From a virus, in IMG/VR virus record IMGVR_UViG_3300024999_000055, positions 32,001-96,000 of that record: 64,000 nucleotides of DNA; one strand, 5' to 3'. Position numbers and translations under genes: made by a program. The notes beneath the pieces were generated by a model. That model was given only the letters and a program-made list of their open reading frames with translations, did not search any database and was not told where the DNA came from. Shown in pieces: positions 5,688-63,900 of this stretch. The first letter of the stretch is position 1. Every line of letters begins with the position of its first letter.

Positions 5688-5705
5688 ACCAAACATGACA
5701 TTGAT
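5688..5705. repeat. Dyad site A
   Basis: ACCAAA-catgac-ATTGAT directly after the stop at 5707. Confidence 0.55.
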
Positions 5706-7659
5706 ATTAATCCAATTCTACATTCTCACATAATTCATCTTTCATCCATCCCTTAATGAATTCATTTATTGTCATATCTCCATTAATCGCATGAATTTTT
5801 TTATTTTGTTTTTTAAATCTAGCGACAGCAATTTCTAACCATGATATATGATAATAATGTGGCATTTCATTACTTATTGAATTATTAAATAAATTATTTA
5901 CACATGGAATATACGTTTGAAATTCACCATTATTCATATTAATAGGATTTAAAGGACAATTCCATGCATGATTTCCTGCTGAATCTTTTTGACAATATAA
6001 ACACATAGAAATACTCATATATCATTCTCCTTTCTATTTTTTATTATTTCAATATTCGTTCACATTAATTAATTTTCCACAATTATCACACACTATAATA
6101 GTTTCTTTGTTTATATTATTTTCTTTATTTTCATTTGTTACATCAACAACCTTAGGATTAGAAATTAATTTCCCACAATTTGTACATAATATTTTACCTA
6201 TTAAAACACCTATACCTAACATATTATTACCTCCTTTATTTCGTCATTTACCTTCTAAATATTTTTCCATACAATTTACACAATCTTCAATACATGCAAT
6301 ACGATAAGAAATACAACAATATCCATCATCAACTAACTTTTCAGCAATTCTTTTTCTTTCTTCTTTTGCACCTTCTTCTTTATTCATTTCTGCAAACATA
6401 GATAAAGTGTCTGCTTCTAAATGTATTTTATTTTTATTCATAAGAAACCTCCTTTCTTTAGAGTTTAATTATATGTATTTAATTATAATTTCATATTAAT
6501 TCTAAAATCTGCTTCAATAATTAATTTTGCTAAATCTTTTTGTAATTTTGTCGCTATAGTACGCCACTCAATTATTTCTATATCTGATGCTTCAGTATTT
6601 GGATTCTGAAATAAACAAGATAACTCTTTAATTCTATCTTGTAATGATTGGAATTGATTATAAAATTTTTTATCTGATCTTATTGTGTATTGCATGATTA
6701 ATTTTCTCCTTTCTTATTTATTTTAACATTCTATTTTCATTATCTTCCATATCATATTTTAAATGATTTAATCTTTCATTTAATTCCTCAGACCAATCAA
6801 TCATTAATTTACAACTATATGTTGAATTTATATATTGGGAGTATTCATGTAATGCCCTAGTAATTTCTTGAATTCTTTGTAATTCATAAATATGTTTAGG
6901 TGTAATTCCTAATGGTGGTTTATTCATGTTGTTATTCTCTTTTAGTTTATTTTCTGATTTTCATTCCAATTTTTAATTAATGTTTCTACAGTTAAAAATC
7001 CACCTAGAGAATACATACAAACAGGGCATATTATTTGACTATTATATTCTAAATTTTCATTATATAAAATTACATTATTATTGTTACATATTGGGCAAGG
7101 TTTTAATTTATTCATATAATTTCTCCTTTTTAATCAATTTCAGCACCACAATGAACACAAATATTCAATTCTTCTGCACATTTCATACAAAATTTATCAA
7201 CATTAGAATTATGATGTAGAAATTCTTCTTTGCAGTTTTTACAATTAAATGTTGTAAATGCTTGAAGTGCTATTTTAATATTAATATAATAACAATATTT
7301 ACATTTTTGCAATTTTAATCTTTGTAGCTGTTTTGGGTCTGTATCGTAGTTATTTAAATTTTTTCTTATTGTAGATATAAATGATTTATTAGTTTCTGAT
7401 TGATGTTTTGGATTGATTGTCATATTATTTCTCCTTATTTTTTAATTTTTACTTTATCCATGTAACTATAAATTTCTGTTGCTTCTATATCTAAAGTATC
7501 TGCATATCCTATTTTTCTATTAAAATGTGTGCTTACTATTTTAAAATAATTATTCATATATTTTATTGTATCTTCATGTTTAATTTCAATTGTTTGATAA
7601 TGTTTATTAATTATATAGGCAATTATTAATAACATTTTTTTAATCATATTATAATCTCC

Positions 7660-7908: not shown

Positions 7909-7968
7909 ATCAAAGACAAATTTTATTAAAACATATTAAATCTTAGAATACAGTAAAATTAATGATTA
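7909..7968. repeat. Dyad site A followed by a degenerate motif B
   Basis: ATCAAA-gacaaa-TTTTAT, then GAATACAGTAAAATTAATGATTA at 7946. Confidence 0.5.
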
Positions 7969-8437: not shown

Positions 8438-9418
8438 TTAATAAATTCTTTTCTCTAATAACTTAATATCATTTATTTCAAACATATTACAAATTAAAGC
8501 AATACGAATCCACATTCCATTTTCGCATTGTTCCCAGTATTTAGCACGTTTATTTTTATCAATCTCAACAGCAATTTCATTTCTTCTAGGTAACGGATGA
8601 AGTATAATCGTATCATCTTTCAATTTATTTATATTACTACTAGTTATGCTGTATTTATTCGTATCAATAATTTCATTTTCATTAATTCCTTCATTTTTAT
8701 ATTCATCTTGCAATCTAATCATATAGACAACATCAACTTCCGATATAACCTTTTCAAAATCATCAGTTAATTCATAATCAATATTCAATTGTTCTAATAT
8801 ATCAGATTTAATTTGAAATGTTTTTGGTGCAACAAAATATAACTTAGTACCTTTAACTTTATTTAATAATAGTGTTAATGATTTAACTGTTCTACCTCGC
8901 AATAAATCTCCAATAAATGCTATTTTTTTATTTTCTAATCCATATCTCCATATAGTATAAAAATCTAAAAGTGCTTGCGTTGGATGTTGGTCTGATCCCG
9001 ATCCAGCATTAATTATCCTCATATCATCAGGTAAATTTTCAGAAATTTCATAGATAAAATCAGATGATGGATGTCTCATTATAATTAAATCTATATATTG
9101 AGAAAATGTTTTAATTGCATCTAATTCAGATTCACCTTTTACTTCTGAGGAAGTAGAAGTATCTCTAATTTCTGAAGTAGATATACCTAAAATGTGGCAA
9201 GCATTTTGAAAAGATAAAAATGTTCTGGTTGATGATTGTTTGAAGTATAGTATTGCTCTTTTATCTGATAGAATTGTTTTTAAGTATTTTAATCCTTGTG
9301 AAGTTGATGCTGTATTTCTGATTGTGTCTGTTAGTTTGCATAGATTAAGTAGATTTTCTAGTGAATATTGTTGTGAGTTTATACATCTTGTTTGTATATT
9401 TGCGTTTATAATAATCAT
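8438..9418 (-). CDS. pyrB: Aspartate carbamoyltransferase catalytic subunit
   Basis: QSSTRT, KGESELD, MRHP, INAGSGSDQHPTQALLD, GDL..GRTVKSL, RLQDE, HPLPR. Confidence 0.95.
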   Translation of the reverse strand: MIIINANIQTRCINSQQYSLENLLNLCKLTDTIRNTASTSQGLKYLKTILSDKRAILYFKQSSTRTFLSFQNACHILGISTSEIRDTSTSSEVKGESELDAIKTFSQYIDLIIMRHPSSDFIYEISENLPDDMRIINAGSGSDQHPTQALLDFYTIWRYGLENKKIAFIGDLLRGRTVKSLTLLLNKVKGTKLYFVAPKTFQIKSDILEQLNIDYELTDDFEKVISEVDVVYMIRLQDEYKNEGINENEIIDTNKYSITSSNINKLKDDTIILHPLPRRNEIAVEIDKNKRAKYWEQCENGMWIRIALICNMFEINDIKLLEKRIY

Positions 9419-9424
9419 CTCCTT

Positions 9425-10039
9425 TTATATAATTTTATTTTTAATATAACTTTTATTTACTAGAGCAAAATCTATATCCTCATCAACATTATTCAATTTC
9501 AGATAATCATCCCATGTAACATTACTACAAAGACACATTGAATCAATAAATCCTAAAATAAATTCAACATTGCATCTAGTTTTAATAGATAAATTCATTT
9601 TATGCCTATTATTTATATAAAATGATTGTGGAGTATCCCCAAATTTCCTACTCATACCTTTCCAATCACAAATCATTTGATTAATGTGTTTAATTGGTAT
9701 ATCTAGTGCTATTCCATTATTGTCTATCCAATAATTCCAATGATGAGGATTATTTTTAAAATGATGCTCCCATGCTTTATTAAAATTATTTTTACATTCT
9801 AGATAGTTTCTGCTTAAATTAGACATCCCATTATTTAATTGTTCCCAATTATAATCTTTTTCAAGTTTTACACCATGATACCCATAAAACCATTCTGAAT
9901 ATGGTATAAATTCACATGGTAATAGTTTACTTAAATCATGTGTAAATGCGTGAAAATATAATTTTTCTTTCCAACATTCAATAAATACATTTTTCTTATG
10001 TTCTAAGACGTATTTTAGGTAATTAATATATTTTTTCAC
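9425..10039 (-). CDS. DUF5662-like (HD-related) protein
   Basis: EHKKNV, HDLSK, AWEHH..NPHHW, MICDW pattern. Confidence 0.7.
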   Translation of the reverse strand: MKKYINYLKYVLEHKKNVFIECWKEKLYFHAFTHDLSKLLPCEFIPYSEWFYGYHGVKLEKDYNWEQLNNGMSNLSRNYLECKNNFNKAWEHHFKNNPHHWNYWIDNNGIALDIPIKHINQMICDWKGMSRKFGDTPQSFYINNRHKMNLSIKTRCNVEFILGFIDSMCLCSNVTWDDYLKLNNVDEDIDFALVNKSYIKNKII

Positions 10040-13581: not shown

Positions 13582-16500
13582 TTAATTATTTTCCAATATT
13601 TCTTTATAATAATCAATCCAATCTTGATTTTCTAATTTTTTCTTAACAACAATATCAAAATATTCTTTTCTCATATCTTGTAATGAAAATTTAGTTATTC
13701 CTTTCTTTTTAAGATTCTTATTTACCATTTTAATTATTTCTGTTCTATTCATTGGATAAAGTTTAATCAATCTTTCCTTCTCTGCTTTTTCTTCTTCCTC
13801 TAATCTAATTTTCTCTTCTTCGATTCTTTTTCTTTCTTCTTCTTGTTCATCTACAATACTATCCAAATCAATCTCTAACCTATTCCATTTACTCTCCATA
13901 TGAGCAGGTATAACTACTTCTGGCACTAACACTTCTTTAATTTCAAACATCTCATAAGGTTCATAATCATAATTATAGTCTGTGAAATATGAACCATTTC
14001 TTTGTACAGAACGAGAAATTCCAAAATTAAATTCTTGTATTTCCTGATAATCTCCATCCATTTCTATTAATTGACCTTGCTCAGTTTTGTATTGATATTT
14101 TCCTTGATCATCCCAATTATCATCTCCGACATCTTTAAATCCATAGATTTTACCATTGTGTGTATATGCAAAATTTTCTAAATCTTCTTTTCCTAGTTTC
14201 TTTACTATTTTTGCAAATAGGGTAATATTCATATTTGAATTCTCCTTTTATTATTTATTTTTAAATCTACACCATTTAGGACTAAATATTGCTTGTAATT
14301 TTGGAATGCCTCTACCATAAATTTGTGCGAATGAATTAAAATCAGGGTTTATAGTATCCATACAATGACCATATACTCCAAATATTTTTTGTTCTAAATT
14401 ACCATTTGACCAATCATCTTTTTCAAAATATTCACATTTACTACATTTAAAAATTTTCATAATATCCTCCTTTTAATTTAATATTGTAAATCAACACCAA
14501 ATTTCTCTTTGGTTCAAATATTGAGTGTCACAAACACAGTAATATCAATGGTTTGTGAATTGGTGATTTTATGATTTTTATACTTTATAAGCTAATTTTT
14601 TTCATTTCCAACCTATACAATTATAAACATCACATAATAAATGTAAATTGTCATAAATAAGATTTTCTACTCTTGATTGTTTAGGTATTGTACAACCACT
14701 TAAACATCCTAAAATTGATTTTCTAAAAACTGAAATACCTTCTTTAATCTCATTAATATAATCTTCCCAACTTTCTACTTGTATCACTCTTGATTGATGG
14801 TCTATTATATTATCATTATCATTATCATCTAATGATAAATTTGTTTCTATTATTTTAATCATATTACTTACTCTCCTTTTCCTCAAATATTTCTTTATAT
14901 TTATCCACATTTATTTTACATTTATAATATATTTCATAATCTTTCCATTCACATTCCATAATATCTCTAATAGAAGTTATTCTTTCTTGAAAATATTCAC
15001 ATCCATAACAATTATCATCAGAACCTTTATCATAGCATTTTTGATTGTATTCTCCAATAGCACCAAATGGACACCAACTATTTTTTGATTCATCATCATA
15101 AATTCTATTAGCAGGATGTTCACATTTAGGGAATCTCTCTTGATATGCTTGAATTTCTTGCAGTGAGTAGTAACCGTATTCTTTACATTTTTCATGTGGT
15201 AGAATTCCTAGTGTATAATCAATCCAATCCTGACTACGCATAAGATCTGAACGAGCACCTTGACCAAATCTAGCATAGAATAATTCTTGACCTGCTAATG
15301 GCATTTTGTTAATGAAATCTAATATTTCTTTTTCGTATTTGTAATTTAATTGCATCATATTATCTTCTGAATATGATTTTATAATTTCTAGTTTCCACCA
15401 TTCTTGATTTGTTAAGGATAGGCAATTATCGCATAAATTTAGTCTACTTGAAAAGTTCGTAAATATAGAATTATGATTAAGTGTAGGAATGAGTATTTCA
15501 TGTATTTGAGGGTATGATTGTAGACAATTGAAACATATAGAATCTGGATTTTCTATTGCAATGTGGTGAGGATTGATTGAATTGGTTGTTTCAATTAATT
15601 TTGTTGATTCATGCATATTTTATCTCCTTTCTAAATATATTATTATTGTATTAACTATTTAATTAGTTTTAAAGTTCCAAATTCTTTAAATTTTTCACTT
15701 TCTAATTCTTCTAATTCTAATTTATCAAGTTCTTCTTGTAATTCATTAATTCTATTTCTTAAAAATTGCTTCTCTTGCTCTAGTTTAAATTTTTCAATCT
15801 CTTTATTTATATTTTGTTCATTTGATTCAAACTGTTCTTGATATTTCCAATAATCTCTCTCTTGCCCTTCCCATGCATAACTGCCTAAACTAATAACTTT
15901 TTTTATTCTAAATGCAGAAGCCGTAAAATCACAACCATTACCACAACATCTATATTTTTCATTATATCCTTTATCTTCAGGTTCACATTCACAATATCCC
16001 CAATGTCTTTCATCTTTAGTAAATTCTATATAATAACAATAATCATAATAAACATCTACCATATATTCACTTTCTTTTTCATTGTCTGGTTTTTCAATTA
16101 ATATTCTAATTTTGCCATTTGTATAACCTCCAGAGTAATCTTCGTCATAACCGTTAATATAATATGTATGCTTTGTAATATCGTCTAAGAATTCTTTACA
16201 ATTTTCAATTTGTTGGTCTATTACTGAAATTATATATGGGATATCTAAGATTTTTTTGTTATAATTAATTCTGTTTTCATTTTCATTGTTTAAAGTGCTA
16301 ATTAGATTTTGGATAAATTGGTCTTTGGTTGAAAGGTTAGATGTAGTCATAGGATAGTGTCTCTCCTTTTATTTTTTATTTTTATAATGTATTTTTAATT
16401 TCTTTCCATAAGAAATCACATAATTTATTTACTCCATTAACTCTTACTAGTGGAGCATTATAATCATCTAATAATTCAATCATTTGTCCAATATTTAATA

Positions 16501-24114: not shown

Positions 24115-24138
24115 ATAAAATGAAAGTTTTATCATGAT
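24115..24138. repeat. Dyad site A
   Basis: ATAAAA-tgaaag-TTTTATCATGAT. Confidence 0.7.
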
Positions 24139-24531
24139 TTAATTACTAGATGTAGTATATAATTAATTTTAATATACAAGATATAGTATTTATAAATTTT
24201 GATACATTGTGGGTGGTTATACATAATTCACTATTTTTATTATCTTGTAAATATTTTTTTATATTCTTATTTATTATTTCTTTATTAGTTTTATAATCAT
24301 CACTTGAATAACAGCAATATGTTATTATTGCCTTCCCACAATTTTCACATGATTTTTCATGTGCTCCTTTATAGCAAGCGACACATTCAGAATTTTCTGC
24401 ACCACATTCACTTTTATCATTATGTTTAAAACATTCTCCATAATAATTTAAATTAACATCTTTTCCACATAAAAAACATTTACTATATTTCATAATATTT
24501 TATCTACTTTTTATTTAATATTACTTAAGTA

Positions 24532-24906: not shown

Positions 24907-26842
24907 GATTATTCATCTCCTTTTGTTTATATTATATTTTATATTTCTTAATAATGGACATTCGATCACTTCTTCACGTTCATTGAAATATGTATCAACT
25001 ATTTCTGAAATTTTATTATTGTATAATTTACATCCGTATTCAACCCAATATCTTATCCAAGTTCTAGTAGAATATTCACATTCAAAGCACATTTTTTATT
25101 CTCCTTATAATTTATCATAAGTCTTATCTCTTTCTTTAACAATTTTATATAGATAACTAGGTTTATTAATCGTATCCATAATTATTTCTTCTGTGATTTC
25201 TATTTCATTATCACATTCAGAACAATATTCATAAGAGTAATTTAATATAGGTTGTAAACTATCAAATTCTGCTTCTTCACTATCTGATAATTTTTCCTTT
25301 TTATTTAATTCAAAATATCTAAGATACCTATTTATCTTTTTTTCATCCATAATAATATAATTACAGCATATATACATTTTGTAGTATCTTTCTAATATTT
25401 GTTTTGATACTAAAAATTCTAATATTTTATTTATATTCACAATCTCTTTTGACCAATTTTTAAATATTTTAGTTAATTTAGGTGTGTATTCATGTAAATA
25501 AGAATGAAATCCCCATTCCACTAAAAATTTATCTAATTTAATCTTATCTCCTTCAGATATAAAGTTTAATTCTTTAATCTCAGGATAATGATGTACACCT
25601 AATAGTTCTGAATATTCTTGTAATTTTTTATTGTCTATAATATCATTGATTTCTGATGTTAAATATCTGAATGAAAAATATGAAGGTAGTATTTTAGTAA
25701 AATCAGTCAATTCTTCTCTTGAGAATTGCTTAAATTCTTCAATGTTAATTTGTTTTAAATATGTATTAAATTCAGTGTATTTATTTATAATTGTTTGTAG
25801 ATAATTATTCATATTTTAATCTCCTTTATCCTTTTCTTTCTGTTTCTTCTTAACTTTCTTAATTTCTAATGCTAATTTACTATCTCCTTCACCATTGTCT
25901 TCCTTTTTATCTTTCTTTAACTTTTTATCACACCATTTTAATACTCCACAACAACCTACATAACCTTTTACAGTTTTATCTTTACATGTTGATCTAGGGA
26001 ATTCCATATACATGTCATAACCTTCTTTTGCTGTCCAATTCATTTTAACAATTTCTGTGATTAGATTTGGACAATTGTTTTGGTTAGTTGTGGATTCTGT
26101 GGGGTATGTAGAGTCTATATTTTCTATTGTATTGTCATTATTTTCGTTTTCTTCTTCGATATTATGTATGAAAGATACCTCCTTAAACTTCTATTCTATC
26201 AATTATCTCTTTTGGTTTACAATATCCTATTTGACATTTACCACATAACCATTTCTTATCTAATTGATGCTCCCAACACCATGTACCATTATCTCTTCCT
26301 TCTTTTTCATCTGTAATATATCCGCAATGAGTACATGGATGAAATGATATTCTGTATCTTGTTCTTTTTAACATGATTTTAATCTCCTTTATTAATCTGC
26401 ACACCTATCACATTTACCTGAATCAGTATAATCAGCAAACAATACTCCGCATACTGGACAATGCTCTAAACAATCATCACAAAAAACATCATTATATTGT
26501 TCATATTTATTGTGTGGTTTTAATTCTGATAACTTTAATAGTTTACCACAATCAGCACATTGTTTGTATTCGTCCATAATTTTATTCTCCTTTTTATTCT
26601 TATTATTTTATTAATTCATATTTTGCATTTAAATTGCTAAATGTTAAAGGGATAACTCCATTAACTATACCAAATTGATCACAATACCATATAACCCCAT
26701 TCATTTTAGTTATATACCAATATTCATTTATTGCATAATTTGCTTTAAATATTTGTCCTTCTTGAATTATATTGATAACTTCACTTAAACTAATAGGGTG
26801 ATACATATTTATTCTTCCTTTCTTTTTTATTTTAATTTCATC

Positions 26843-26860
26843 ACCAATCCTCGAATTTAT
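26843..26860. repeat. Dyad site A at the tnpB 3' boundary
   Basis: ACCAAT-cctcga-ATTTAT. Confidence 0.55.
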
Positions 26861-26882
26861 TCAAATATTCCTATTTGATTTG

Positions 26883-28097
26883 TTAGATTATATTAACTCT
26901 AACTGGATGTAAACCTACACCCTCTATTCCCTCTGCAAAAGCATCAGGAAATACTTTTTTAATAATCTGGTATGCACCATTTAAGTCTGCATTAATAAAT
27001 TCACCTCCATTACTTTGAAATAATCCTCTTGCCACTCTTCTACTTTTATTATAATTTTCTTTACATGGTATTTCACCATCAAGAAAACTTGTACCAGAAG
27101 TATATGATTCTTCTGTTTCAATAAAATTAATACCAACATTCTCACATTTGTATTTAATCTTTTCAATAAATAAACTATGTGGAATACCAACAAAATTCTG
27201 ATTAACTTTCCTACTCATATTACTTTCTTGTTTCCAATCTTTATTTTTACCTACTACCACAGTATCGATATTATTCTCAATGCACCAATTAATTATGTAT
27301 TTACTTGTTTTATGTATATAATCAGTTATTTTATTATTTCGTTTATTAGTTAATTGCTGTAGTTTATTACTCCAATTTTTATCATGTTTTAATTTTAAAT
27401 CAGATTGTTTTTTAGATTTTTCTTTATTATAATACTGATTTATAGATTTCAATGGTTTACCATTAATTATGAATGATTGTAATCCAATATTATTCCCTAC
27501 AGTCGCCAAATTATCTATTCCAATATCTATCCCTATTATATTGTTATTATAACTTATTTTTTCTGGAACATCAATTTCGTAAACAATTTCCATTATATAT
27601 GTATCACTTTTTGGTATAAATCTCACTTGCATAAGTTTACCATTTACATTAGTTCTTATTTTATTATTTAATGGTTTTAATTTACTCCAACTAAATCTTA
27701 AATAACCATCACTTATACTGAATTTAATATTATCAATTATTAAATTATATCTTCCTTCTTTTTCTTTATAATTAGGAAGTTTAGGTTTACCTAAAAATTT
27801 ATCTTTGTTTTTATTCCATTCTTTAATACCTGCAAAAAATGACCTCCAATTTTGATCAAGTAATTTTAAAGTTTGTTGACCTACATTGCTCCCTATTTCT
27901 TTATATGGTTCAGATTCTTTACACAACTGAAATAATTCATTATATCTAATCCATTTTTTATTATTTATAAATTCTTGACGAATTATATAATTAGCATAAT
28001 TATAAAGATTTTTAGATTTAAAACATAACTCATCTATTAATTTCCATTGTGGATTATTCTTTTTAATGATATGTTGTTCAACTCTATTTGTTTTCAT
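26883..28097 (-). mobile_element. tnpB: Solo TnpB (IS200/IS605/IS607 superfamily RNA-guided nuclease), no tnpA
   Basis: SKNLYN, PKLPNYK, GIDIGIDNLA (RuvC-I), EESYTS, RGLF, INADLNGA (RuvC-III). Confidence 0.92.
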
Positions 28098-28316: not shown

Positions 28317-28359
28317 TATTTATTTTTATATTTTGTTAATATTAATTTATTTAATTTAT

Positions 28360-40786: not shown

Positions 40787-40803
40787 TTCTTTTTATAATA
40801 TTA

Positions 40804-41829: not shown

Positions 41830-41880
41830 AAAATATATTCCTCCAATTTATATTTATTTTATATTTATGTAATAAGCAAA

Positions 41881-41910
41881 TGAGGAAGGGGATTTCTCCC
41901 CTATCACTCA
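41881..41910 (-). terminator. GAAA-tetraloop hairpin
   Basis: TGAG..AGGGGA-GAAA-TCCCCT..CTCA on the transcript strand. Confidence 0.55.
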
Positions 41911-41923
41911 ATTAAATATCAGA

Positions 41924-42877
41924 TTAGAATTTAGGGCGTTCCCTCTTAGTTGTATTTGCTCCTGTCCCTTTTAATCCTTTTCCTTTTTTATCAGTATATT
42001 CTTCATTCTTTTTATTTTCAATTTCATTGTCTCTTTCGATCTTAGCCTTTTTTACAAGTTCTGGATCGAATTCTTTTTCTTCATCTTCTTGAATATCTGC
42101 ACCAAGAACAATTAACTCATTAACATACTCTCTATGTTCTTCAATTTTTGCTTTACCTAAAGTTCCACCTTTTTTAGTTTTAACAATTTTACTTTGGTAA
42201 TTGATGTTGCCCCATAAATTTAATGTCATACCTTCTTCAACAGAATTCAAAACATCTGCACCAAAGTCATATTCTTCACCTTCATCATCAATAATTGTCC
42301 CTGCAACAAATTCCATAGGAATAACTTTCCCACCATACACAGGAATCCATCCTGAAATTATTGTCCTACCAGTTTCTTCATCATTTTTTATTTCCTCTTT
42401 AATTGACGTAACATACATTTCTACATCAAAATCAGCTTTATAATCTTCAGGTTTAATACTATTATCAATTGAAATCGTACCAAAACCTAATTCAATAGTA
42501 ATTTTAGTTTTTACTTCCTCAGATTCTTTAATTTTAAATATTTCTTCTTTGAAATGTGGTACAAAATCTTTATTGCCAAAAACTCTTACCTTAGTTACAT
42601 TTTCTCGATCTTCATCATTTTTACAATCTGCAAGTGTTAACTGTTCTTTTTCAATGAATTTATTTAAAGTTTCAAAAACTTTTTTAGCTTTACCATCTTT
42701 ATTTTTTTCTTTTACAAAAACCTTTACTTCTAATTCTGAAAACTCACCAGTTTTAACTATCAATGAACCATTTATGTAGTTACCCTCTTTATCTTTGTTA
42801 AATTTTAATTTGTGTTCTTTAACTTCACCTGTTAATGTAACATTGTTAACCGCTTGTCTCAATTCATTATTTGCCAT
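41924..42877 (-). CDS. Putative single-stranded DNA-binding protein
   Basis: NNVTLTG OB-fold-like start, C-terminal aromatic tail, position beside Sak4. Confidence 0.6.
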   Translation of the reverse strand: MANNELRQAVNNVTLTGEVKEHKLKFNKDKEGNYINGSLIVKTGEFSELEVKVFVKEKNKDGKAKKVFETLNKFIEKEQLTLADCKNDEDRENVTKVRVFGNKDFVPHFKEEIFKIKESEEVKTKITIELGFGTISIDNSIKPEDYKADFDVEMYVTSIKEEIKNDEETGRTIISGWIPVYGGKVIPMEFVAGTIIDDEGEEYDFGADVLNSVEEGMTLNLWGNINYQSKIVKTKKGGTLGKAKIEEHREYVNELIVLGADIQEDEEKEFDPELVKKAKIERDNEIENKKNEEYTDKKGKGLKGTGANTTKRERPKF

Positions 42878-43332
42878 ATGTAATATTAGTCTCCTTTAAA
42901 TTTTAATTTTTATTTTTACAATCTATATACTTATTTAATAACTAAACTATCAATCGACTAATTAAATCCTACTCTTCATCCTCTTTCTCATCATCTTCAA
43001 CATATAATCTCAGACTTCCTTCTTGCATTTCAACTACATTCCATCTTTCATTATGTTTTCCACCATCAGGAATAAATTCAATTTCAACTTTCTCTGGTTT
43101 TGTACCTTTGAATCCAGTTACATTTCCTACTTTTAATTCTCCGTTGTCTTCTGAAATAAATCTAATTTTGTTTCCTGTAGAAATGGTTTGCAATTCTCCT
43201 GTATTAATTTCTACTTCAATTGATTTGTACGGAACTTTTTCAACATTGACCATAAATAAATCATTTCTCCTTTTCATTATAGATTTTATCTTATTTTACA
43301 CTTTAAAATCTTAGAAGCCTAACTTTTTACAA

Positions 43333-43411
43333 ATCATGACCAAATATTCCTTTTATCATGATTTTCTGAAAATTGACATGCTCTAAACCATTATTTTATA
43401 GGGGTTTGTGA
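43333..43411. repeat. Best dyad site A (12-6-12) plus motif B
   Basis: ATCATGACCAAA-tattcc-TTTTATCATGAT; AAACCATTATTTTATAGGGGTTT at 43385. Confidence 0.8.
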
Positions 43412-43523: not shown

Positions 43524-43552
43524 ATTATATTCCCATTCTGTATAATTGTCAA
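43524..43552 (-). promoter_or_regulatory. SigA-type promoter for the replication operon
   Basis: TTGACA-17 bp-TATAAT. Confidence 0.8.
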
Positions 43553-46543: not shown

Positions 46544-46564
46544 ATTAATTCCTCCTATTTCATT

Positions 46565-46731
46565 ACAAAATCTTTCTTTGGTGTTAATATTATTTTACTT
46601 TATTTATTTTATGTAAATAATCACTCATAAATGCTTATATATCAAGGGTTTGCAGGTATTGATATGAGTAAAATCATAAATATACCTATTTTACGTATTT
46701 TACCCATATCATGATAAAACAGAATTTTTAT
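46565..46731. repeat. Gene-less unit: site A - motif B - site A
   Basis: ACAAAA-tctttc-TTTGGT; AAATGCTTATATATCAAGGGTTT at 46629; ATCATGATAAAA-cagaat-TTTTAT. Confidence 0.7.
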
Positions 46732-47396: not shown

Positions 47397-48836
47397 TTAA
47401 TTAATCTCTAATGCATTAAATCTTTTTGCTATCTCTTTAAAAGATGAATTATAAGCATTTATAAATCTTTCGTTATTATTTAAGTCATCTTCATTAAGAT
47501 ATTTTTTATTACGTCCATCATAATCATCACAAACTACTGGTTCAATAACACTCCTATCATATGAATTTTGTATAGTAATAGTTTTAATCATTCTTGGTTC
47601 ATTGTTTTCTTTCTCATATTCAAAAATTAGATTTAAATTATTTGATAATTCTATAGGGAATATAGTATTATATCTTCTGTTCCAATACTTATTATATCTT
47701 CTATTATTTAATTCCTGTATATTCTTTTTAATAATTTCTAAAATATACTTATATCTATCCATAATTTTATTATAATCCAATGTAAAATTTTCTTTTAACA
47801 TTTTAGATTCTATATTTATAGGATTAATTTTTTTAAAATCATCTTGTATTATTAAAGTATTCTTCATTTCAAATATAATTTCATCAATATCCTTTCCCCA
47901 ACATAATCCAACTACAGAAGTTATATCATCATTAGTAATGTCAATATTTTCTGGTACAGCAAATAAAATAGGATCTAATCTGCAATATAAATATTCTATT
48001 TGTTTTTGTTGTTTAAGAATAGTATTTTGTAATTGTTGGTTTTGTGATTCTAAATTCATTTGTACTTGTCTATTTCTATATTTTTCATTTATGAATTCTG
48101 TTTCTAATTTATTTAATTTGTTTGAAATTGAATTTATTTTATCACTTAATGTTTTTATATTTATATCAAATGATTGTGCTAGTGATTTTAAATTTTCATC
48201 ATTGGTTTTCGTTGCCATATATAAATTTTTCTGTGTAGGAATTATTAAATCTAATGTTTGAAATATATTTTCAAAGTAATCAGAATAATAAATACCTTTA
48301 ATTACATCACTTTTAATTTGTTCCCATACATTATAATAGTCTATAGGGCATAATAAATAACATTGATAATTGGTTGTTGTATCCTGTCTTAATAATTCAT
48401 TAAAATATTTATACCCTTTCTTTAATTCATATGAATTATCCTCTATATCAAATAGTTTATCAATTTCAGTATATTCAACAGGAATTATTACCATATTAAA
48501 AATATTTGCAAGCGTTCTATATTCAGATATTTTAACTTTGGGTAGATGATTTAATGCTGTTAAAATATCTGAATATTCTCCATCACAACTAGGAATCTTT
48601 TTTAATTTAGGAGGTAATCTTCTTTCCGTTATCCAACTATTTTTTCTTATTTCTAAACTTTCATTTTTTAATTTATTATTTATTTTATTTTTTAATTCTG
48701 GTGTTTCTCCTAGATATTCTAATGATTGTTTATATAAATCAATCACTTTTCCAAAATTGTTTATAATGTCATTATCTTTTTCTAATAACTTAACAGGTTT
48801 ATTTTCAAATTTAACTGCCTGTAATAAATTAGGCAT
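47397..48836 (-). CDS. Hypothetical coiled-coil protein
   Basis: 479 aa ORF, own promoter and RBS. Confidence 0.75.
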   Translation of the reverse strand: MPNLLQAVKFENKPVKLLEKDNDIINNFGKVIDLYKQSLEYLGETPELKNKINNKLKNESLEIRKNSWITERRLPPKLKKIPSCDGEYSDILTALNHLPKVKISEYRTLANIFNMVIIPVEYTEIDKLFDIEDNSYELKKGYKYFNELLRQDTTTNYQCYLLCPIDYYNVWEQIKSDVIKGIYYSDYFENIFQTLDLIIPTQKNLYMATKTNDENLKSLAQSFDINIKTLSDKINSISNKLNKLETEFINEKYRNRQVQMNLESQNQQLQNTILKQQKQIEYLYCRLDPILFAVPENIDITNDDITSVVGLCWGKDIDEIIFEMKNTLIIQDDFKKINPINIESKMLKENFTLDYNKIMDRYKYILEIIKKNIQELNNRRYNKYWNRRYNTIFPIELSNNLNLIFEYEKENNEPRMIKTITIQNSYDRSVIEPVVCDDYDGRNKKYLNEDDLNNNERFINAYNSSFKEIAKRFNALEIN

Positions 48837-48866
48837 TATATCGCCCTCCTTTTAATTGTTGTATTT

Positions 48867-48895
48867 ATTTTAACATTTTGTTGTTAGTTTGTCAA
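48867..48895 (-). promoter_or_regulatory. SigA-type promoter
   Basis: TTGACA-17 bp-TGtTAAAAT. Confidence 0.75.
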
Positions 48896-48908
48896 CTATT
48901 ATTTCTTA

Positions 48909-48982
48909 ACGAAATGCGTCTTTGGTAATGATATTTATACTACATATAGTATATTGTAATAATTATATACTATATGTAGTAT
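48909..48982. promoter_or_regulatory. Site A plus tandem NrdR-box-like pair
   Basis: ACGAAA-tgcgtc-TTTGGT; ATACTACATATAGTAT (48937) and ATACTATATGTAGTAT (48967). Confidence 0.7.
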
Positions 48983-50047: not shown

Positions 50048-50084
50048 ATAAATTAATCCTCCATTTATTATATTTTAAGTTGTG

Positions 50085-50159
50085 ATAAATTTTATGTTTT
50101 GTTGTGATTTTTATACTACATATAGTATTCACAATCTATATCTATATTATATGTAGTAT
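50085..50159. promoter_or_regulatory. Site A plus tandem NrdR-box-like pair
   Basis: ATAAAT-tttatg-TTTTGT; boxes at 50113 and 50144. Confidence 0.7.
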
Positions 50160-50178
50160 CGTAAAAACATTAAACCTA

Positions 50179-51911: not shown

Positions 51912-53153
51912 TCATTCTCCTGCCTTATAATTATAAATAGGTTTAATAATATCTAATATTTCAACAGTATTATTAATATTATTAATAATTTCTTCTATAG
52001 GTTTATAAGCCATAGGTGCTTCATCAAGCGTATGTGTACTTACAGAATTAGTAAAAATATCTTTCATAGATTCTTGATAATCTTCCATAGATATATTTTC
52101 TTTTGCCTTACTTCTACTCATTAATCTACCAGCACCATGAGGAGCAGAATAATTCCAATCTGCATTTCCTTTGCCTACAGCTAATATTGATCCATCACGC
52201 ATATTAATAGGAATTAAAACTTTTTCACCTTCATAAGCAGAAATAGCACCTTTACGAATAATATTATCTTTAAAATTAATGTAGTTATGAATTGTTTCAA
52301 ATATTTTAATATTATGATATTCTTTTGCAGTTATTTCTCCTATTTTTATAAGTTTTAATAAAATAATATCTGCTATGATATATCTATTTAAAGTAGCATA
52401 TTCTTGGCAAAGTTTCATATCATGTAAATATTTATCTCTCCATTCACCAGAAAGAAAACATAAATCTTTTGGATAAGATGGATGTAAATTATTATACCTT
52501 TTCTCTAATTCTTTTAATGCACTATGAATTTCATTTCTCTTTCCTTGTTGCTTATAATCAGCAATTAACTTTTCTTTTTGTTCATAAAAATCACTTTTGC
52601 CACTACATAAATCTATAGCAATGTTTTGATAATATTCTGCTACTTGTTTTCCTAAACTTCTACTTCCTGAGTGAATTACAAGATATAAATTATCATTGCT
52701 ATCTTTATTTACTTCAATAAAGTGATTTCCTCCACCAAGAGTACCTATACTTTTTTCTATTCTTTTTGTATCTTTAAGTGACCTATAGCAATGTAATTCT
52801 CTCATTTCATCAAAGTCAGATATTCTATTTTTATGTGTATTTCTTCCTAATGGGACAAATTCACGAATAATATCATCTAATTTTTGTAAATCAATATTTA
52901 CTTTTCCTAATTCAAAAACTCCCATACCACAACCGATATCTACCCCTACAATATTAGGAATTACTTTATCTCTTAAATCAGCAGTAAATCCTATTACACA
53001 GCCTGACCCATAATGACAATCTGGCATAATACGAATTTTACCACCTTCTACAAAAGGTTGATTACATAATTCAATTATCTGAGATATAGCAGTTTGTTCA
53101 ATATTATCAGTAAAAACTTTTGCAGTATTGTATTTTCCTTTTAATTCTAACAA
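51912..53153 (-). CDS. rtcB: RtcB RNA ligase
   Basis: MPDCH, GVDIGCG, GTLGGGNHFIE, HSGSR, HNY, RKGA, SAPHGAGR, DEAPMAYK; start moved to the TTG after GGAGG. Confidence 0.96.
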   Translation of the reverse strand: MLELKGKYNTAKVFTDNIEQTAISQIIELCNQPFVEGGKIRIMPDCHYGSGCVIGFTADLRDKVIPNIVGVDIGCGMGVFELGKVNIDLQKLDDIIREFVPLGRNTHKNRISDFDEMRELHCYRSLKDTKRIEKSIGTLGGGNHFIEVNKDSNDNLYLVIHSGSRSLGKQVAEYYQNIAIDLCSGKSDFYEQKEKLIADYKQQGKRNEIHSALKELEKRYNNLHPSYPKDLCFLSGEWRDKYLHDMKLCQEYATLNRYIIADIILLKLIKIGEITAKEYHNIKIFETIHNYINFKDNIIRKGAISAYEGEKVLIPINMRDGSILAVGKGNADWNYSAPHGAGRLMSRSKAKENISMEDYQESMKDIFTNSVSTHTLDEAPMAYKPIEEIINNINNTVEILDIIKPIYNYKAGE

Positions 53154-53180
53154 GTTTTCAACCTCCTTTATCTTAATGAC

Positions 53181-53209
53181 ATTATACAATTATTTTTATA
53201 TTGTGTCAA
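53181..53209 (-). promoter_or_regulatory. SigA-type promoter for rtcB
   Basis: TTGACA-17 bp-TATAAT. Confidence 0.8.
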
Positions 53210-53873
53210 TACCTAAAATCGTTACCAATCTAATTATTTGACATGATTTATTAATCCACTTTAATAAAATACTCAATACTAGATATTTCACTTCCTATAA
53301 TTGCAACATTCTTTTCTGCACAATCTATTAATTCAAAATGTGATAATTTAATTTCATTAGTTTGTTTAGGCATTATATTCATAATTAATTCCTCAAATTT
53401 AAGTTGTGTTTTAATCTTATATTCCTTACCGCTTTTCATGCAAATGATATAATCATACATAATATATTTTCTCCTTTTTTAACTATTTATAGAGTAATCT
53501 AACCTAACTTTTTTAACTTTATATTTATCCATACTATCTCTTTCTATCCATTCTCTTACATATTCATTTGCTTCTGCTCTGGTATCAAAAGTAATTGCTT
53601 CACTAATTAACTTATTAATTTCATATTCAGTTTTAAAATCATTCATAGATTCAATTCTTGAGTAATATCCATCTTGGGTTATATTATATATAACATAATA
53701 AATATATGTTTCTGCTATTTTCATATATTATCCTTTCTTAGATATTGTGTATGTATATTTAATATTATTTTTGAGTATAATCTTATTAGAGAAGTTGGTA
53801 GCAAGTTTAATATATAGTAATATTACCTCCTATGTTTTATTGCATATATTACACTACCAAATTCTCTTTTTGT

Positions 53874-54880: not shown

Positions 54881-54982
54881 ATGAAAGCAAAATTTGGCTC
54901 AAATATTACCAAAGATTCCTTTGATCATGATTTCTATACTATATGTAGTAGATATATGGTTTTGTATCACTACATATAGTAT
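54881..54982. promoter_or_regulatory. Two A sites plus tandem NrdR-box-like pair
   Basis: ATGAAA-gcaaaa-TTTGGC; ACCAAA-gattcc-TTTGATCATGAT; boxes at 54936 and 54967. Confidence 0.7.
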
Positions 54983-59104: not shown

Positions 59105-59133
59105 ATTCTACCATACTAGTTAGTGACTGTCAA
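59105..59133 (-). promoter_or_regulatory. SigA-type promoter for the four-gene kinase operon
   Basis: TTGACA-17 bp-TGgTAGAAT. Confidence 0.8.
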
Positions 59134-59175: not shown

Positions 59176-59255
59176 ATCATGACAAAACCAATATTTTATA
59201 TTGAAATTTTCCTACATATAGTAGTATTTAATTATTTAACCACTATATGTAGTAT
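59176..59255. promoter_or_regulatory. Site A plus tandem NrdR-box-like pair
   Basis: ATCATGACAAAA-ccaata-TTTTAT; boxes at 59209 and 59240. Confidence 0.7.
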
Positions 59256-59262
59256 ATAAAAA

Positions 59263-62200
59263 CTATTCTTCTACAATCTCATATTCATCATCAATTAAAT
59301 ATATCCATTCGTTTCCTTTATATTGAACAAATACTCCCCTAATATTACCTTCCCAATTATAATCACCTATTGATTCTTTAGATTCTTCTATAGTTAACTC
59401 ATTATATATTTTTGCTTCAACAATTTCTCCAACTTTCTCATTGAAATAATTAGATAATATTTTAACTTTCATATGTATTATTCCTCCTCTTCATCCCATT
59501 CTTCTAACAATTCTATTGCTTCACTATAACCTTTCCAGTTATCCACTCCTGCACATTTAAGTGCTTCTAAAAAATTACTATCTTTTAATAATTTATTATA
59601 TTCTTCTAACGTAATATTTATAGTTTCATTATTATATGTATTAAATTTCTCAATCAATTTAAAACATCTAGGTTCAATACTCTTATCAATATTAACACCA
59701 GGAACAAATGTTAATCCTTCGGCCACATTATCTCCTTGTTGAGTAGAAACTTGAACTAAACAACCATTAGGTAAATTGCATACCTTTGTTGATTTCATCC
59801 ATTTTTGATTTTTAGAACTTGCTTTACATAATAATGCAAAAGTATCTCCGTCACCATAAACTTTAATATCATTAATTTTCTCTTTTGCTTGCTCAACGTT
59901 TTGAATGTTTAATGTTTTACTATTCATATTATTTTCCTCCTCTTTATTATTTGATATTTTTCTTTTAAATTCTTTACATCCACCAGGAGTGCAATCACCT
60001 TTGCCACAATTATTATCATTTCTACAATAACCCATACATAAATTATCATTAAATTGCTTTGCACAATCAAAACAACAATCTACTTTATTATATTTATTCA
60101 TATGTATTCATTATCTCCTTTACATTTTTTTAAAATCTCAAATGCCATGCGTTCATCGCTCCACTTAACGCACCATTATCACCAAGCAATAAATATCCAC
60201 AAAACATAATAAAAGTAGTAGTTACAATGTGACTTACCTCAATACTACCAATAACCTTTGTGTTTAATAATTCTTTCATAATAATCTCTCCTCTTTATTT
60301 TTATATTTTTCAAATATCATAATATATTTTATTATCTTTAACTGCACCATTAACATCTTTTATTTCTTTAATATAATATCTACTATCACAATCATTCTTA
60401 CTACTAAAAGTATGAATAATTGTTGTTATATAATATTTATTATTATCTATATCTTTAACTTTTATCTTATAAGTATGTGCCCAATAATTATTATTACCAT
60501 AAATATAAATGATAATATTAATTTTATAATCAAAATTTTCACCTCCTATATGTTTTATTAATTTTAACTTTTTTATTAAAATCAGGATAATATACTTTTG
60601 CTAATTTCCTATGTTGTTTATTAACTATATTAAAATCTTTTGTATTGAGTGAAAATTCTAATGTTTTATATTTATTTTTATTTAATGTAGATATTATAAA
60701 TACTAATAGAAAATGAATTGCAAATATTGTTAACCACAATCTAAAAAGATTAATAATATCAATAAATAACATTCCTATAATTATAGCACAAATAAAATTT
60801 AAAAAACAAAATAAATTAATTTCTAAATAATTATTATGAATAAATTTAACTCTATCATTATAATTAAGATATAAATAACTTAACCAAAATTCTAGTAATA
60901 TCATTGAATTATTCCTTTGTATTAAGTTTAATATCGTCACGAAACATTCAATTGATTAAATTTGCACCGTCCAAATATTTTCATCATTATCTTTTAAGCA
61001 TTCTGCATCTAATTTATTTTCATTATTAAGTTGTAATAATTTATCAATTAATTTCATAATCTTATTCTCCTTTCTCTTCTCTACATAAACTTTCATGAAT
61101 ACTACTTGCAATACTAATATACTCTGCCATTTCATGTAATTCTTCTCTTAATTCTAATTGATCTGCTAATTCTTCGGCAAATCTTTTATATTCTTGCCAT
61201 GTAATATTAGAAATAAAATTTTTAACTACTTCTTTATCATGTTCTAAATCAACTGCCATTTTTACAATGAATTCTTTAAATTCATCAATTGCAATATTAA
61301 TATTTTCTTCTCTTTGTTCTTTAGACATCTCACTAAATTTCATAGTGTTTATCCTTTCTATTTCAATATTAAAGTTAGATATTTCTATATATTGTGGTCG
61401 TGTATATAACCACAATATATAGAATACATATACTTTTATGTATAATTTTACTTTTCCTTCTTACTCTTACTCCCTACACTATTTGTAACATTACTAATTG
61501 ATTTTTTCATATTATCAATATCAGTAAGTAAAAATACCATAGCCTGCTCTTTGGTAAATCCAATTTCAACATAAGCGTCGAATTGATTCTTTCTTACTTT
61601 TGCTTTAGCAGTAAAATATTCAGTATTATTTGAAAAGTCCTTGTATACTTCTAATAATTCTTGACCAACCATATAAACTAATGGTTTAAATTGATCTACC
61701 TGCTCTTTAATCATCCCCTTTAATTCATCTGGATTCTCCAATAAATTGTATAATAATTTGTTCATATTAACATTCTCCTTTTCGTTTTTATATTTTTATT
61801 TAATAGCAATACATTATAACGTATCACTATTTTACACACTCCATAAACACATCAATATTATCATCAATTATTTTAACTATCTGACACAATTCATCTAACA
61901 TACTAGCAGTTAAATGATTATCCATTGTATCCGTATCAATATAAGCATATTTTTCTTTAACATTGATTACAATAGAAATTTCAGTTTCATAGATATAAAC
62001 ACATATCTCACTAAAAGGCCAAATATGTAATGACAATTTGCTACCTTCATAATCTCCAATTATATTTAATATTTGTTTAATTATGCTTTGTAGATTTGTA
62101 TTGCTATTAGGTAAAATATTATTATTTACATTTTCTTTAATTTTATCTTTTTCTTCATTTTTACCTATAAACTCCAAATTATCTATAGCAAAACATAATT

Positions 62201-63900
62201 TACCTTTTTGTGAATCAATGTCATTTACATTTTTATCATAGAATTCTATGATAAATCTATTGTTAAACCCATAATTATGATCAATTTTAATTATTCCTAT
62301 TTTACCTATGTACATTTCTAATTCAGTACTGTCTTGAAATTGAAATCCATCTGTATTTATTACTTTTACTACTTTATCTATGTATTTAGACATATTGTAT
62401 TCTCCCTTCTATTTATCTTTAATATTTCTATTCAACCAATCGCAATATTTTTGACATTCTTCTTTACTTTTAAATCCTAGTCTCTCGCCATATGATTTAT
62501 TTTTATGCAATTCAATAATACTTTCATCAAATTCATCAACAACATTATAAATTTTAAATTCTTGATAATCATAATCATAACTATTTCTATCTTTACTAGG
62601 AGAATAACTTCTACTAAAATAAAATTTTCTTTCTGAAGAATATCTACTATCTCGTTTACTAAATTTAATCATTATAATTACACTTATAGCAGGAACATAT
62701 TTACTTAACATTTTTGCACAAGCACATGCAGTTTTAGTGATTTCACCATTTGGAAATTTTGCAACTAATTTTCTCTCTTTATTACATAAGTTACATTTTT
62801 CATTTTGGTAACGCTCTATATCAGCAAACCATACTTCACACTCTTCTATATATTGCTTTAAAGTATCACCGATATTACTTTGATAAAATTCATTAGTGAC
62901 TTCTCTTTTAAGATTTTCTTCTTTATATTTTAGATCATTTTCTTTATTTAAAATATCTCTTTCACGTTGTTTATATTTATTATTTTCTTCTTTTAATCTT
63001 ACATTTTCATCCTTGATATTCTCAATTTGTGACTTAACACTATCTAATAAAGCATCTTTCATTTTTTGTTGATATTCTATTAAAATTTCATCCGCTAAAG
63101 TTGGTTCATAATAAGGTGGTTCTTCATAATAATCGTACATATTTTCAATCTCCTTTTTTATTTATTAAATTATTACAATTTTAGATTCATGCAATATCCA
63201 AGTGCCATTATTTAAATTATTATAAACTTGTTTTCCTACATAATTATTATCATATGTAATTCCATTGTCAACAGCAGTTAATAAATATCTATCTTTATCT
63301 GAATTTTTTGAAACAATATAATAACTTTTACCATCACAATGAGATAGAAAGAATGGTGTTTCTGGTATTTCTATTTTTTTAGAATTATTATTATTTTCTA
63401 TTTTAATTTTATACATATTCATTTTCTCCTTTTTTTGTTTATTAAATTAAAACCAAAGATAAGTTTGATCATATATTAATTTATTTTTAATTTAATCTAT
63501 ATAATCACATTGCAAATTATCTGTTTCCTTGCCACATATAGGACAATCAAATATCGCAACTTCTAATCCTTCATACTCTGTAGTTTCTTTTACAGCAATA
63601 TCCATAGAATTAAATAAACCATTACACTTATTACATTTCATATTAGGCAATTCCATATTTTCTCCTTTGTTCTATATTATTCTATTCTTCTACAATTTGA
63701 ATCATTTCAACAGTATTAGGTGAGAATCCAACACCCATTAAAAAACACTTAAACTCTTCTACTAATAACTCAATTTGAGTTTGAATCTCTGAATCTACTT
63801 TCATAAGTGTTTTGATAAGTCTACTTTCATTATTAAATTCGTCAATGTAAGCAAAATCAATTTTAACTTTAGATTCATTTTTATGTTCTATATCAATCAT
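59263..63900 (-). other. Hypothetical phage genes
   Basis: Contiguous ORFs of 69-243 aa with RBSs; A sites at 60939 and 63452. Confidence 0.7.
61382..61425. promoter_or_regulatory. NrdR-box-like inverted pair
   Basis: TTTCTATATATTGTGG and CCACAATATATAGAAT, 28 bp apart. Confidence 0.6.

Follow-up and report, generated by a model that had tools for sequence, protein, structure and literature searches.

The C1 operators of phage P1 and the KorA and KorB operators of IncP plasmids are examples of one regulator acting on many sites, which are spread through a large mobile genome and lie at varying distances from promoters; their binders are known, and the sites overlap or flank promoters. Short sites may also bracket accessory modules, as those of the pdif type do. 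In phage SPbeta, MrpR binds the repeated element SPBRE in ten promoter regions (PMC10516654), and in T4-like phages the motifs called PeSLs, which consist of a stem-loop and an early sigma-70 promoter, have been proposed to supply the homology for exchange (PMC2839356, PMC4122927). The element considered here is a short dyad in a stretch of 64,000 nucleotides (the window), bases 32,001-96,000 of the 106,330-bp IMG/VR record IMGVR_UViG_3300024999_000055 (G000 below), a record estimated to be 57% complete. A first-pass annotation of the window had listed about 19 copies of the pattern AYNAAW-N6-WTTKRT and proposed that they shuffle accessory genes in the manner of integrons or pdif modules. The observation itself is confirmed: the dyad stands at most accessory-gene junctions of this SPbeta-like phage and of several relatives. 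It is also stronger than a reading of the single genome allowed, since it holds for a clade of phages.

With the loose pattern, 49 strand matches are obtained in the window where shuffled sequence yields 28.8 +/- 6.3, and these roughly 29 chance matches per window, together with the low G+C content (24.9% for the whole record, 21% for its intergenic DNA) and two probable chance sites among the 19 listed, could be taken to mean that all are chance matches in AT-rich intergenic DNA. That explanation is next to impossible. The tighter form AYMAAA-N6-TTTKRT occurs 14 times in the 106,330-bp record but only 3.2 +/- 1.9 times in dinucleotide shuffles, and in intergenic DNA alone there are 11 strict copies against 0.47 +/- 0.69, a number reached by none of 300 shuffles. 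When the arms are held fixed and the spacer is varied from N0 to N13, N6 alone is enriched in G000 (14 copies vs. 0-3), and the same is seen across four phage records (14, 16, 25 and 32 copies vs. 0-5 at other spacers). Enrichment over the AT-rich background, which the first-pass annotation had proposed to check, is thus borne out, and for the family as a whole the intergenic enrichment and the N6-only spacing in four records refute chance.

Individual copies were graded with a 34-bp symmetric position weight matrix (PWM) trained on strict sites from three phages, the scores being therefore partly circular. Thirteen of the 19 listed sites score at least 10, four are marginal at 6.5-9 (53224, 53856, 54881 and 60939) and two fall below 0 (11811 and 45880), so that the count of about 19 stands for 13 solid copies and fails for the last two. 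Hits of at least 12 are intergenic in 15 of 16 cases in this record, only 12.5% of which is intergenic, and in 25 of 29 and 36 of 40 in two other records, much as had been claimed; hits of at least 10 number 42 in the relative G003, 31 in the relative G001 and 18 in G000, against 0.6, 3 and 1.2 in locally shuffled sequence. The ATCATG/CATGAT flanks, also remarked on in the first-pass annotation, extend the core to a 12-6-12 palindrome of 30 bp. The consensus from 66 sites is AAATCATG-AYMAAA-N6-TTTKRT-CATGATTT, with a second flavour of outer arm, ATATTTGA / TCAAAT. Its other statements on placement also hold: the replisome block is free of sites, with no PWM hit from 26843 to 43339, and sites are found on either side of the rtcB interval, of the kinase operon and of the PAPS-reductase gene.

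The arms themselves say something of how the dyad is read. Among 66 non-redundant sites oriented by gene direction, the four arm types (ATAAAA, ACCAAA, ACAAAA and ATCAAA) combine freely left and right (chi-square p = 0.76); at positions 3/16 the pair counts equal the product of the marginals, and wobble is not preferred, with 19 T/G against 14 C/A combinations. In the spacer, all six positions are nearly devoid of information; the only bias is against lengthening the A or T run. Since the arms are independent and the spacer is unconserved, the dyad appears to be a double-stranded site read by a putative symmetric protein, with the spacer as a ruler only, and not a hairpin. A role as an RNA or single-stranded DNA hairpin, whether as a processing site, a terminator or an attC-like or REP-like folded site, might be argued from the 13-bp stem that the best copies could form and from the location of sites in transcribed leaders. 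It is very improbable, as the arms lack the covarying pairing of an RNA hairpin or intrinsic terminator and mismatching combinations are as frequent as independence predicts. Rfam gave no match in the window either, and ARAGORN no tRNA gene; the folded form was rejected.

Other dyad-bearing contigs were sought by scanning IMG/VR with the full 28-bp palindrome, which yielded three: G001 (142.8 kb, 16 strict dyads), G002 (99.6 kb, 25) and G003 (64.9 kb, 32). A backwards-read control pattern occurs only 2-4 times in these. G002 is the same phage as G003. Replication proteins of G000 and G003 are only 23-38% identical, and the only protein families common to all three dyad lineages are the DNA ligase, one HNH family and a small protein designated P0001. 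Dyad-poor relatives also exist, for example G005, with 6 dyads in 96.7 kb.

The dyad belongs to a composite module. The 44 nt upstream of it fold at a mean of -5.1 kcal/mol, compared with -2.4 downstream (Wilcoxon p = 2e-5) and -3.0 for random intergenic 44-mers, and the upstream element is of two types. One is a hairpin, ACAAAyCCC - loop - GGGrTTT, often then a short T run, with the GGG of its 3' arm at -24/-25 in G001 and G003 and less regularly placed in G000; the other consists of two NrdR-like boxes, of which box 1 begins at -55 to -57 and box 2 at -25. The hairpin arm or NrdR box 2 is at a fixed offset from the dyad in three lineages. NrdR boxes are described as operators in promoter regions, made up of paired 16-bp boxes with a 15-16-bp linker and with six highly conserved positions, C4 A6 A8 T9 T11 G13 (PMC13584703). 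Read against that account, TACTAYATRTAGTA has all six, and the box starts lie 30-32 bp apart, equivalent to a linker of 14-16 bp; the operator features are those of the boxes beside the dyads, not of the dyad. Because NrdR boxes are promoter-region operators, the dyad sits in regulatory DNA. Strict NrdR-like 14-mers stand 25 or 55 nt before a dyad in five of five cases in G000 and five of six in G001. In the window, pairs found by pattern match lie at 48938..48981, 10-11 bp upstream of dyad 48909, and at 50114-50158, 54937-54981 and 59210-59254, each likewise 10-11 bp before a dyad, and a single box lies at 24144-24157, upstream of dyad 24115. The genes that these boxes precede are not those of ribonucleotide reductase: they encode a 479-aa and a 162-aa protein of no stated function and the PAPS-reductase-like protein, or form the kinase operon. 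The arrangement of box and dyad is also seen in G001, with none in G003.

Downstream, most dyads are followed by a ribosome-binding site (RBS) 4-25 nt later; in G003, some 28 genes each follow a terminator-like hairpin and a dyad at this distance, with no sigma-A promoter. A TTGACA-17-TATAAT promoter comes after the dyad in six cases from three lineages, its -35 starting 13-15 nt later, which puts the dyad centre near -58. Consensus sigma-A promoters of the window lie at 48867..48895 (minus strand, 13 nt after dyad 48909), 53181-53209, 5645-5673, 59105-59133 and 43524-43552, and a promoter scan of the coding strand listed only five known strong promoters. A sigma-A promoter inside the dyad was considered and discarded, as by reading there is no legal -35/-10 arrangement on the consensus. 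A separate observation is that the sigma-A promoters fall into families with near-identical 17-bp spacers (-35 starts 5673, 17046 and 63977 vs. 20944 and 48895), of the forms TTGACAGAATAT...TATAAT and TTGACAA...AACAAAATGTTAAAAT, which are common to relatives; such conserved spacers may hide a second operator.

The best dyad of the window, at 43339..43356 (PWM 31.8), is a full 30-bp palindrome, ATCATG-ATAAAA-N6-TTTGGT-CATGAT, and lies in a leader that runs from a sigma-A promoter to the conserved gene for P0001 (95-102 aa); a dyad is retained 58-106 nt upstream of the orthologous gene in 13 of 23 related loci. Promoters also follow the dyad at 5688..5705 (PWM 12.7), which ends 14 nt before the -35 (5673) of a consensus sigma-A promoter driving thyA and nucleotide-metabolism genes (identified by Pfam), dyad B at 48909..48926 (PWM 21.0), with an NrdR-box pair upstream and a sigma-A -35 13 nt downstream, and the marginal dyad at 53224..53241 (PWM 8.9), which ends 14 nt before the -35 of the rtcB promoter, an offset equal to that at 5688 and 48909. 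The right arm and promoter of dyad B are common to L061:3743. Dyad A, at 50085..50102 (PWM 16.6), has an NrdR-box pair upstream and the PAPS-reductase-like gene downstream. Two further dyads stand behind NrdR-box pairs: that at 59182..59199 (PWM 23.7), 48 nt before the kinase operon promoter, where homology with G001 stops after the left arm, and that at 54908..54925 (PWM 26.7), followed 9 nt later by its marginal tandem partner at 54881..54898 (PWM 6.5). The dyad at 24115..24132 (PWM 22.3) lies between a stop codon and an RBS, the single NrdR-like box being 25 nt upstream, while a perfect ACCAAA/TTTGGT dyad at 14496..14513 (PWM 25.7) lies behind a hairpin of the CACAAACC type, with an RBS 23 nt later. 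An RBS also follows the dyads at 7909..7926 (PWM 20.3), after 12 nt, and 63452..63469 (PWM 23.6), after 20 nt. The dyads at 46714..46731 (PWM 20.1) and 46565..46582 (PWM 23.1, 8 nt before an RBS) are the first and second of a dyad-hairpin-dyad unit (46731..46554) which has no open reading frame (ORF) inside and is conserved alone in the related sequence L058. The remaining copies are the weak dyad at 26843..26860 (PWM 10.6), whose left arm ATAAAT adjoins the 3' end of a TnpB element, and the marginal ones at 53856..53873 (PWM 9.0), where the strict pattern is present with poor flanks, and 60939..60956 (PWM 8.6), which overlaps a GTG start.

Comparison with relatives shows modules of 80-180 bp kept as lone conserved islands between unrelated genes. 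In window coordinates these are 50166..50073 (shared with L053), 46731..46554 (L058), 48926..48846 (L061), 48937..48834 and 46652..46565 (both L059), and, with G001, 59261..59194 and 26927..26803. Break points were compared, without gaps, among 131 distinct dyad instances from 23 sequences, taking pairs with at least 75% identity in one 40-nt flank; the 29 pairs so obtained are not independent events, one locus with the spacer CATAAA being counted several times. Homology is upstream only in 16, downstream only in 7, ambiguous in 5 and on both sides in 1, and is thus one-sided in 23 of 29. Of the 16 pairs with upstream homology only, seven change over at positions 16-19, four (one judged by eye) at 1-7, three ahead of the dyad (-20 to -1) and two at 27-31, while the spacer stays with the upstream flank in 10; overall, the break points scatter from 20 nt before to about 30 nt after the dyad. 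That gains and losses would break within the spacer, as the first-pass annotation suggested checking, is therefore right as to the dyads, where gene content does change, but not as to any one position.

Of particular interest in this respect are dyads A and B, between which lie the PAPS-reductase-like gene, a 92-aa gene and two NrdR boxes forming a pair. In L061 a single hybrid dyad joins the spacer of A, CATAAA, to the right arm and promoter of B. The homology of dyad A with G001, L053 and L061 runs through the left arm and the CATAAA spacer and stops at the right arm; G001, L053 and L059 carry this spacer with still other flank combinations. A further pair, L058:916 and L059:110, has upstream flanks that are 97% identical and opposite spacers (TTTATG vs. 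CATAAA), which suggests, from these sequences, that the dyad or its centre was inverted or replaced. In L059 a further gene immediately follows dyad 46565, and its other end is not marked by a dyad. Spacers do differ between copies, as had been noted: there are 0 identical pairs within G000, G001 or G003 (16, 29 and 40 dyads), where the null expectation is only 0.2-0.6. Where two spacers are identical, the dyads are orthologous ones from different phages. Shared spacers were rejected as evidence that cassettes move from genome to genome, being at chance level outside orthologous positions.

TnpB elements also adjoin dyads. The TnpB of the window (OrfB_IS605 with a Cas12f1-like TNB domain; 26883..28097, minus strand) has its 3' end against dyad 26843, and this end, the omega-RNA region, adjoins a dyad left arm ATAAAT at three different loci (26855-26927 in the window, L052:4100-4204, and G001 106459-106578, i.e. 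L029:6459-6578). In the window, L052 and G001, the homology of the TnpB ends extends into the left arm. The leader between promoter 43552 and dyad 43339 is replaced in L052 and L054 by some 1.3 kb of inserted DNA, which ends exactly at the dyad. The pattern of insertion suggests targeting of, or homing to, the edges of dyads by these IS605-type elements.

The reading that we favour, with confidence about evenly balanced, is that a protein binds the dyad as an operator-type site, within portable regulatory modules which serve as mosaic joints. It would be a double-stranded site for a putative dimeric or tetrameric symmetric protein and the invariant core of a portable intergenic module, which would run from a stop codon through a terminator-like hairpin or NrdR-box pair and, after 10-20 bp, the dyad, to an RBS some 10-25 nt or a consensus sigma-A -35 13-15 nt beyond. 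Such modules would punctuate the early and accessory gene arrays in a clade of SPbeta-like temperate phages, and the bound protein would control or insulate transcription at unit boundaries, as an operator or a roadblock. The modules may also be joints for gene exchange among co-circulating relatives, because they are conserved islands between otherwise unrelated genes; a conserved regulatory island of 30-60 bp would supply the homology for exchange between co-infecting relatives, and the variable break points suggest homology-guided exchange by analogy with PeSLs. An operator comparable to the MrpR site had been the fallback of the first-pass annotation, and it fits the data at least as well as its recombination proposal; no MrpR homologue was found in the record.

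The nearest analogues of an operator of this kind appear to be SPBRE/MrpR and the dispersed C1 operators of P1. The dyads, like SPBRE, are a short element repeated some ten or more times in the intergenic regulatory regions of early genes in a large temperate phage with a serine integrase, and their arm-spacer-arm shape would suit a recombinase-fold binder. The SPBRE sequence, though, is unrelated (ACAAATACAAAAAATATGTATATA, from seven SPbeta upstream regions, including the -10-like TGTATATA), and the dyads are mostly off promoters and, in some relatives, two to three times more numerous. They differ from C1, KorA and KorB sites, with their known binders and promoter linkage, in that the binder is putative. 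With PeSLs they share the character of a small composite intergenic motif that is kept while the flanking ORFs are replaced, found at the replacement and indel break points between relatives. Upstream of the dyads, terminator-like folding is significant, and a sigma-A promoter follows only a minority of them. The constant element here is a 12-6-12 palindrome that cannot be recognised as a promoter, accompanied by a hairpin or NrdR boxes, and the phage group is another one.

Several observations weigh against an operator. A dyad lies within 50 bp of only four of the roughly 10 consensus promoters of the record, with a fixed 13-14 nt from dyad to -35 in three of those four pairs, and the dyads near promoters are centred at about -58, ahead of the -35 and clear of the promoter itself; most dyads come just before an RBS, without a recognisable sigma-A promoter. 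Since the dyads are off promoters, classical promoter occlusion does not explain them. It is also odd, for a simple operator of the downstream gene, that the dyad is inherited together with this gene less often (7) than with the element upstream (16). The search for the binder (in records only 47-73% complete) brought out no strong candidate. Neither tblastn with SPbeta YopR and YopP nor a PF00589 search gave a match in the 106-kb record, so that an MrpR-like repressor was rejected and no tyrosine-recombinase-fold protein of any kind was found there, a result which extends to the whole record the first-pass claim that the window has no tyrosine recombinase. An HU-type protein is present in 0 of 5 records, which disposes of an HU/IHF-type binder; Xre-type helix-turn-helix (HTH_3) and SpoIIID-like proteins are present in G000 and G001, not in G002/G003; and P0001, strongly acidic and with a model that matches no DNA-binding fold, is unlikely to bind DNA at the dyad.

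The lack of promoters behind so many dyads is the starting point of another explanation, in which the dyad is the core of a phage-specific (middle-type) promoter, or an activator docking site, and each small gene a unit of its own. Many G003 genes have a hairpin and a dyad but lack a sigma-A promoter, so that among conserved elements the dyad alone would remain to restart transcription; NrdR boxes, normally in promoter regions, end about 10 bp before the dyad, and flanks such as TAAAAT and CATAAT resemble weak -10 hexamers. We nonetheless think it quite unlikely, as a palindrome is directionless and its consensus holds no legal -35/-10 pair, an RBS at +10 and a -35 at +14 cannot share one start-site geometry, and the P0001 gene in relatives has a plain sigma-A promoter without a dyad; nor did a phage sigma factor or RNA polymerase turn up in the fragments, though no search was aimed at one. 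A further explanation starts from the shape of the dyad. Arms separated by 6 bp, as the first-pass annotation had rightly said, are the geometry of tyrosine-recombinase core sites, and the dyads, with their 11-12-bp arms and A-/T-tract, fall within the 11-13-bp inverted arms and 6-8-bp spacer of that class. They might accordingly be core sites for a Xer-like recombinase of phage or host, at which segments are inserted, excised or swapped in integron or pdif style, in which case one strand pair would probably be exchanged at the spacer/right-arm boundary and spacer identity would not be needed. The likeness is to dif, difH and difSL, with two 11-bp arms, partial dyad symmetry and a 6-bp centre, and in the case of difH and difSL with AAA/TTT beside the spacer (PMC5357621). 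The dyad-rich G003 and G001 do encode Xer-like recombinases with catalytic residues complete by reading, and a dyad lies 24 nt after the G003 gene. The A-B segment against the single hybrid dyad of L061, the seven of 16 upstream-only breaks at 16-19, which together with the invariant TTT fit a crossover at position 13, the 10 of 16 spacers that follow the upstream flank, and the inverted CATAAA spacer of L058:916 can all be read in the same sense.

A Xer-like mechanism is all the same unlikely. Partner sites of a tyrosine recombinase share their spacers, and with no identical spacers, dyads of one genome are barred from the canonical two-step exchange with each other. The breaks also fall at -20 to -1, 1-7 and 26-31, the supporting pairs are non-independent, and the extra gene of L059 arrived without a second dyad; there is no tyrosine recombinase in G000, G004 or G005-G009, and those of G001-G003 may be plain integrases, with no dyad near the G001 gene. 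Unlike dif, the dyads number dozens per genome, each with another centre, they lack the canonical ATAA-N6-TTAT core, and the breaks are not confined to the centre. Integron attC sites resemble them in standing at each junction, with left arm and spacer staying with the upstream gene and the break near the 3' edge; they differ in folding as a single strand with extrahelical bases and paired R/L boxes, where the dyad arms do not covary, and no IntI-type integrase, attI or common promoter was seen. Shuffling in integron or pdif style thus survives from the first-pass annotation insofar as the dyads mark content changes and the A-B segment corresponds to a single hybrid dyad in L061, and is not supported as a site-specific mechanism, given the differing spacers, the scattered breaks, the L059 insertion and the absence of a recombinase from the record. 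Its fullest form, a cassette system of SPbeta-like phages from very AT-rich hosts, with dozens of dif-like 12-6-12 sites, each with its own spacer, at which Xer-like or host Xer proteins would exchange accessory segments by one strand pair at the spacer/right-arm boundary and to whose left arms TnpB would home, seems distinctly improbable; if true, it would be the phage counterpart of integrons or pdif modules.

The Xer-like genes just mentioned encode 334 aa in G003 (62059-63063, minus strand; L047:1465-2469), where the protein passes the NCBIfam XerA cut-off, and 282 aa in G001 (8878-9726, minus strand; L049:1456-2304). Both proteins have a SAM-like N-terminal and a catalytic domain, in which R, K, HxxR, H and Y are all present by reading. 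The gene is alike in G002 and G003, and G002 also has a YomM-like third recombinase; in addition, a recombinase pseudogene fragment adjoins dyad G003:59433. No serine integrase was found in the available sequence of G001-G003, whose Xer-like genes may simply be their integrases, and the relatives' recombinases fall far below the cut-offs of integron-integrase models.

P0001 itself (102 aa; 42969..43277, minus strand), which lies behind the best dyad, is a small acidic protein of 95-102 aa, always between the ligase and replisome genes, and the only small protein common to all lineages; it is 61-99% identical across three of them, where most other shared proteins reach only 23-42%. Its structural model (pLDDT 67) is all-beta, with no significant Foldseek match in the PDB and no Pfam or NCBIfam family. 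Judging from that model it is probably not the binder, and could be a host-takeover or replisome accessory factor. A candidate early regulator is a 203-aa protein with two or three SpoIIID-like HTH repeats, encoded at L074:8626-9237 on the minus strand (window coordinates 72626-73237, just outside the window); it is conserved in G001 (64% identity) and G005, and its operon begins behind a strong dyad at 74093. A host factor was also considered. A scan of 185,579 species genomes for the 28-bp palindrome gave 13 matches, which pointed to neither a host nor a regulon; five of the matching genomes were checked and had exactly one copy each, with their tyrosine-recombinase genes on other contigs, and the neighbours of two of the 13 matches were uninformative. 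Single copies of ATGATCAAA-N6-TTTGATCAT were seen in Bdellovibrio, Bacteroidota, Falkowbacteria and Tissierella (one per genome in the five checked), and a palindrome, CTCATGACAAAA-N6-TTTTGTCATGAG, is conserved in seven alphaproteobacterial genomes (Rhodobacteraceae and Sphingomicrobium; G+C 54-62%; loci L034, L035, L037, L038, L041, L042 and L046).

As to the phage, no close relative was found in the GenBank phage collection by DNA search. Its RecJ-like protein shows 36% identity with YorK from Bacillus phage SPbeta and relatives; on this basis the phage has the SPbeta replication module in common with them, and G000 appears from its sequence to be a distant SPbeta-like temperate phage from a very AT-rich host. 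Nearly all genes of the window are on the minus strand. Pfam matches include a large serine recombinase (150-1733, plus strand), RtcB (51912-53189), TnpB, an NAD-dependent DNA ligase, a protein kinase, the PAPS-reductase-like protein, thymidylate synthase, a 5'-nucleotidase and aspartate carbamoyltransferase; the 479-aa protein of 47397-48836 belongs to no Pfam family, and a search with its locus, as a single protein, was without matches. Two loci of the window are irregular. About 940 bp (29521-30464) of a 1065-aa polymerase-like gene are missing from the 78%-identical gene of L009 (792 aa), and this extra stretch may be an intein or inserted homing element. Within 2734-4448, thyA and a guanylate-kinase-like gene are separated by a 377-aa ORF that has LAGLIDADG and HTH matches; the kinase-like gene seems to have its P-loop start inside the 185-bp 'intergenic' stretch 3130-3314, and may be split or have been assigned a wrong start.

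In large temperate phages, small accessory genes form long arrays, the regulation and reshuffling of which are poorly understood. Here one palindrome marks most array junctions in several divergent phages and coincides with differences in gene content, and it does so at a fixed distance from host-type NrdR operators or terminator-like hairpins; as a simple sequence probe, it would also serve to find this phage group in metagenomes. If the binder is a recombinase, this would be the first integron-like cassette system in a phage. If it is a regulator, the dyads would constitute a second, unrelated genome-wide control of the SPBRE/MrpR type, wired to the nucleotide-pool sensor NrdR.

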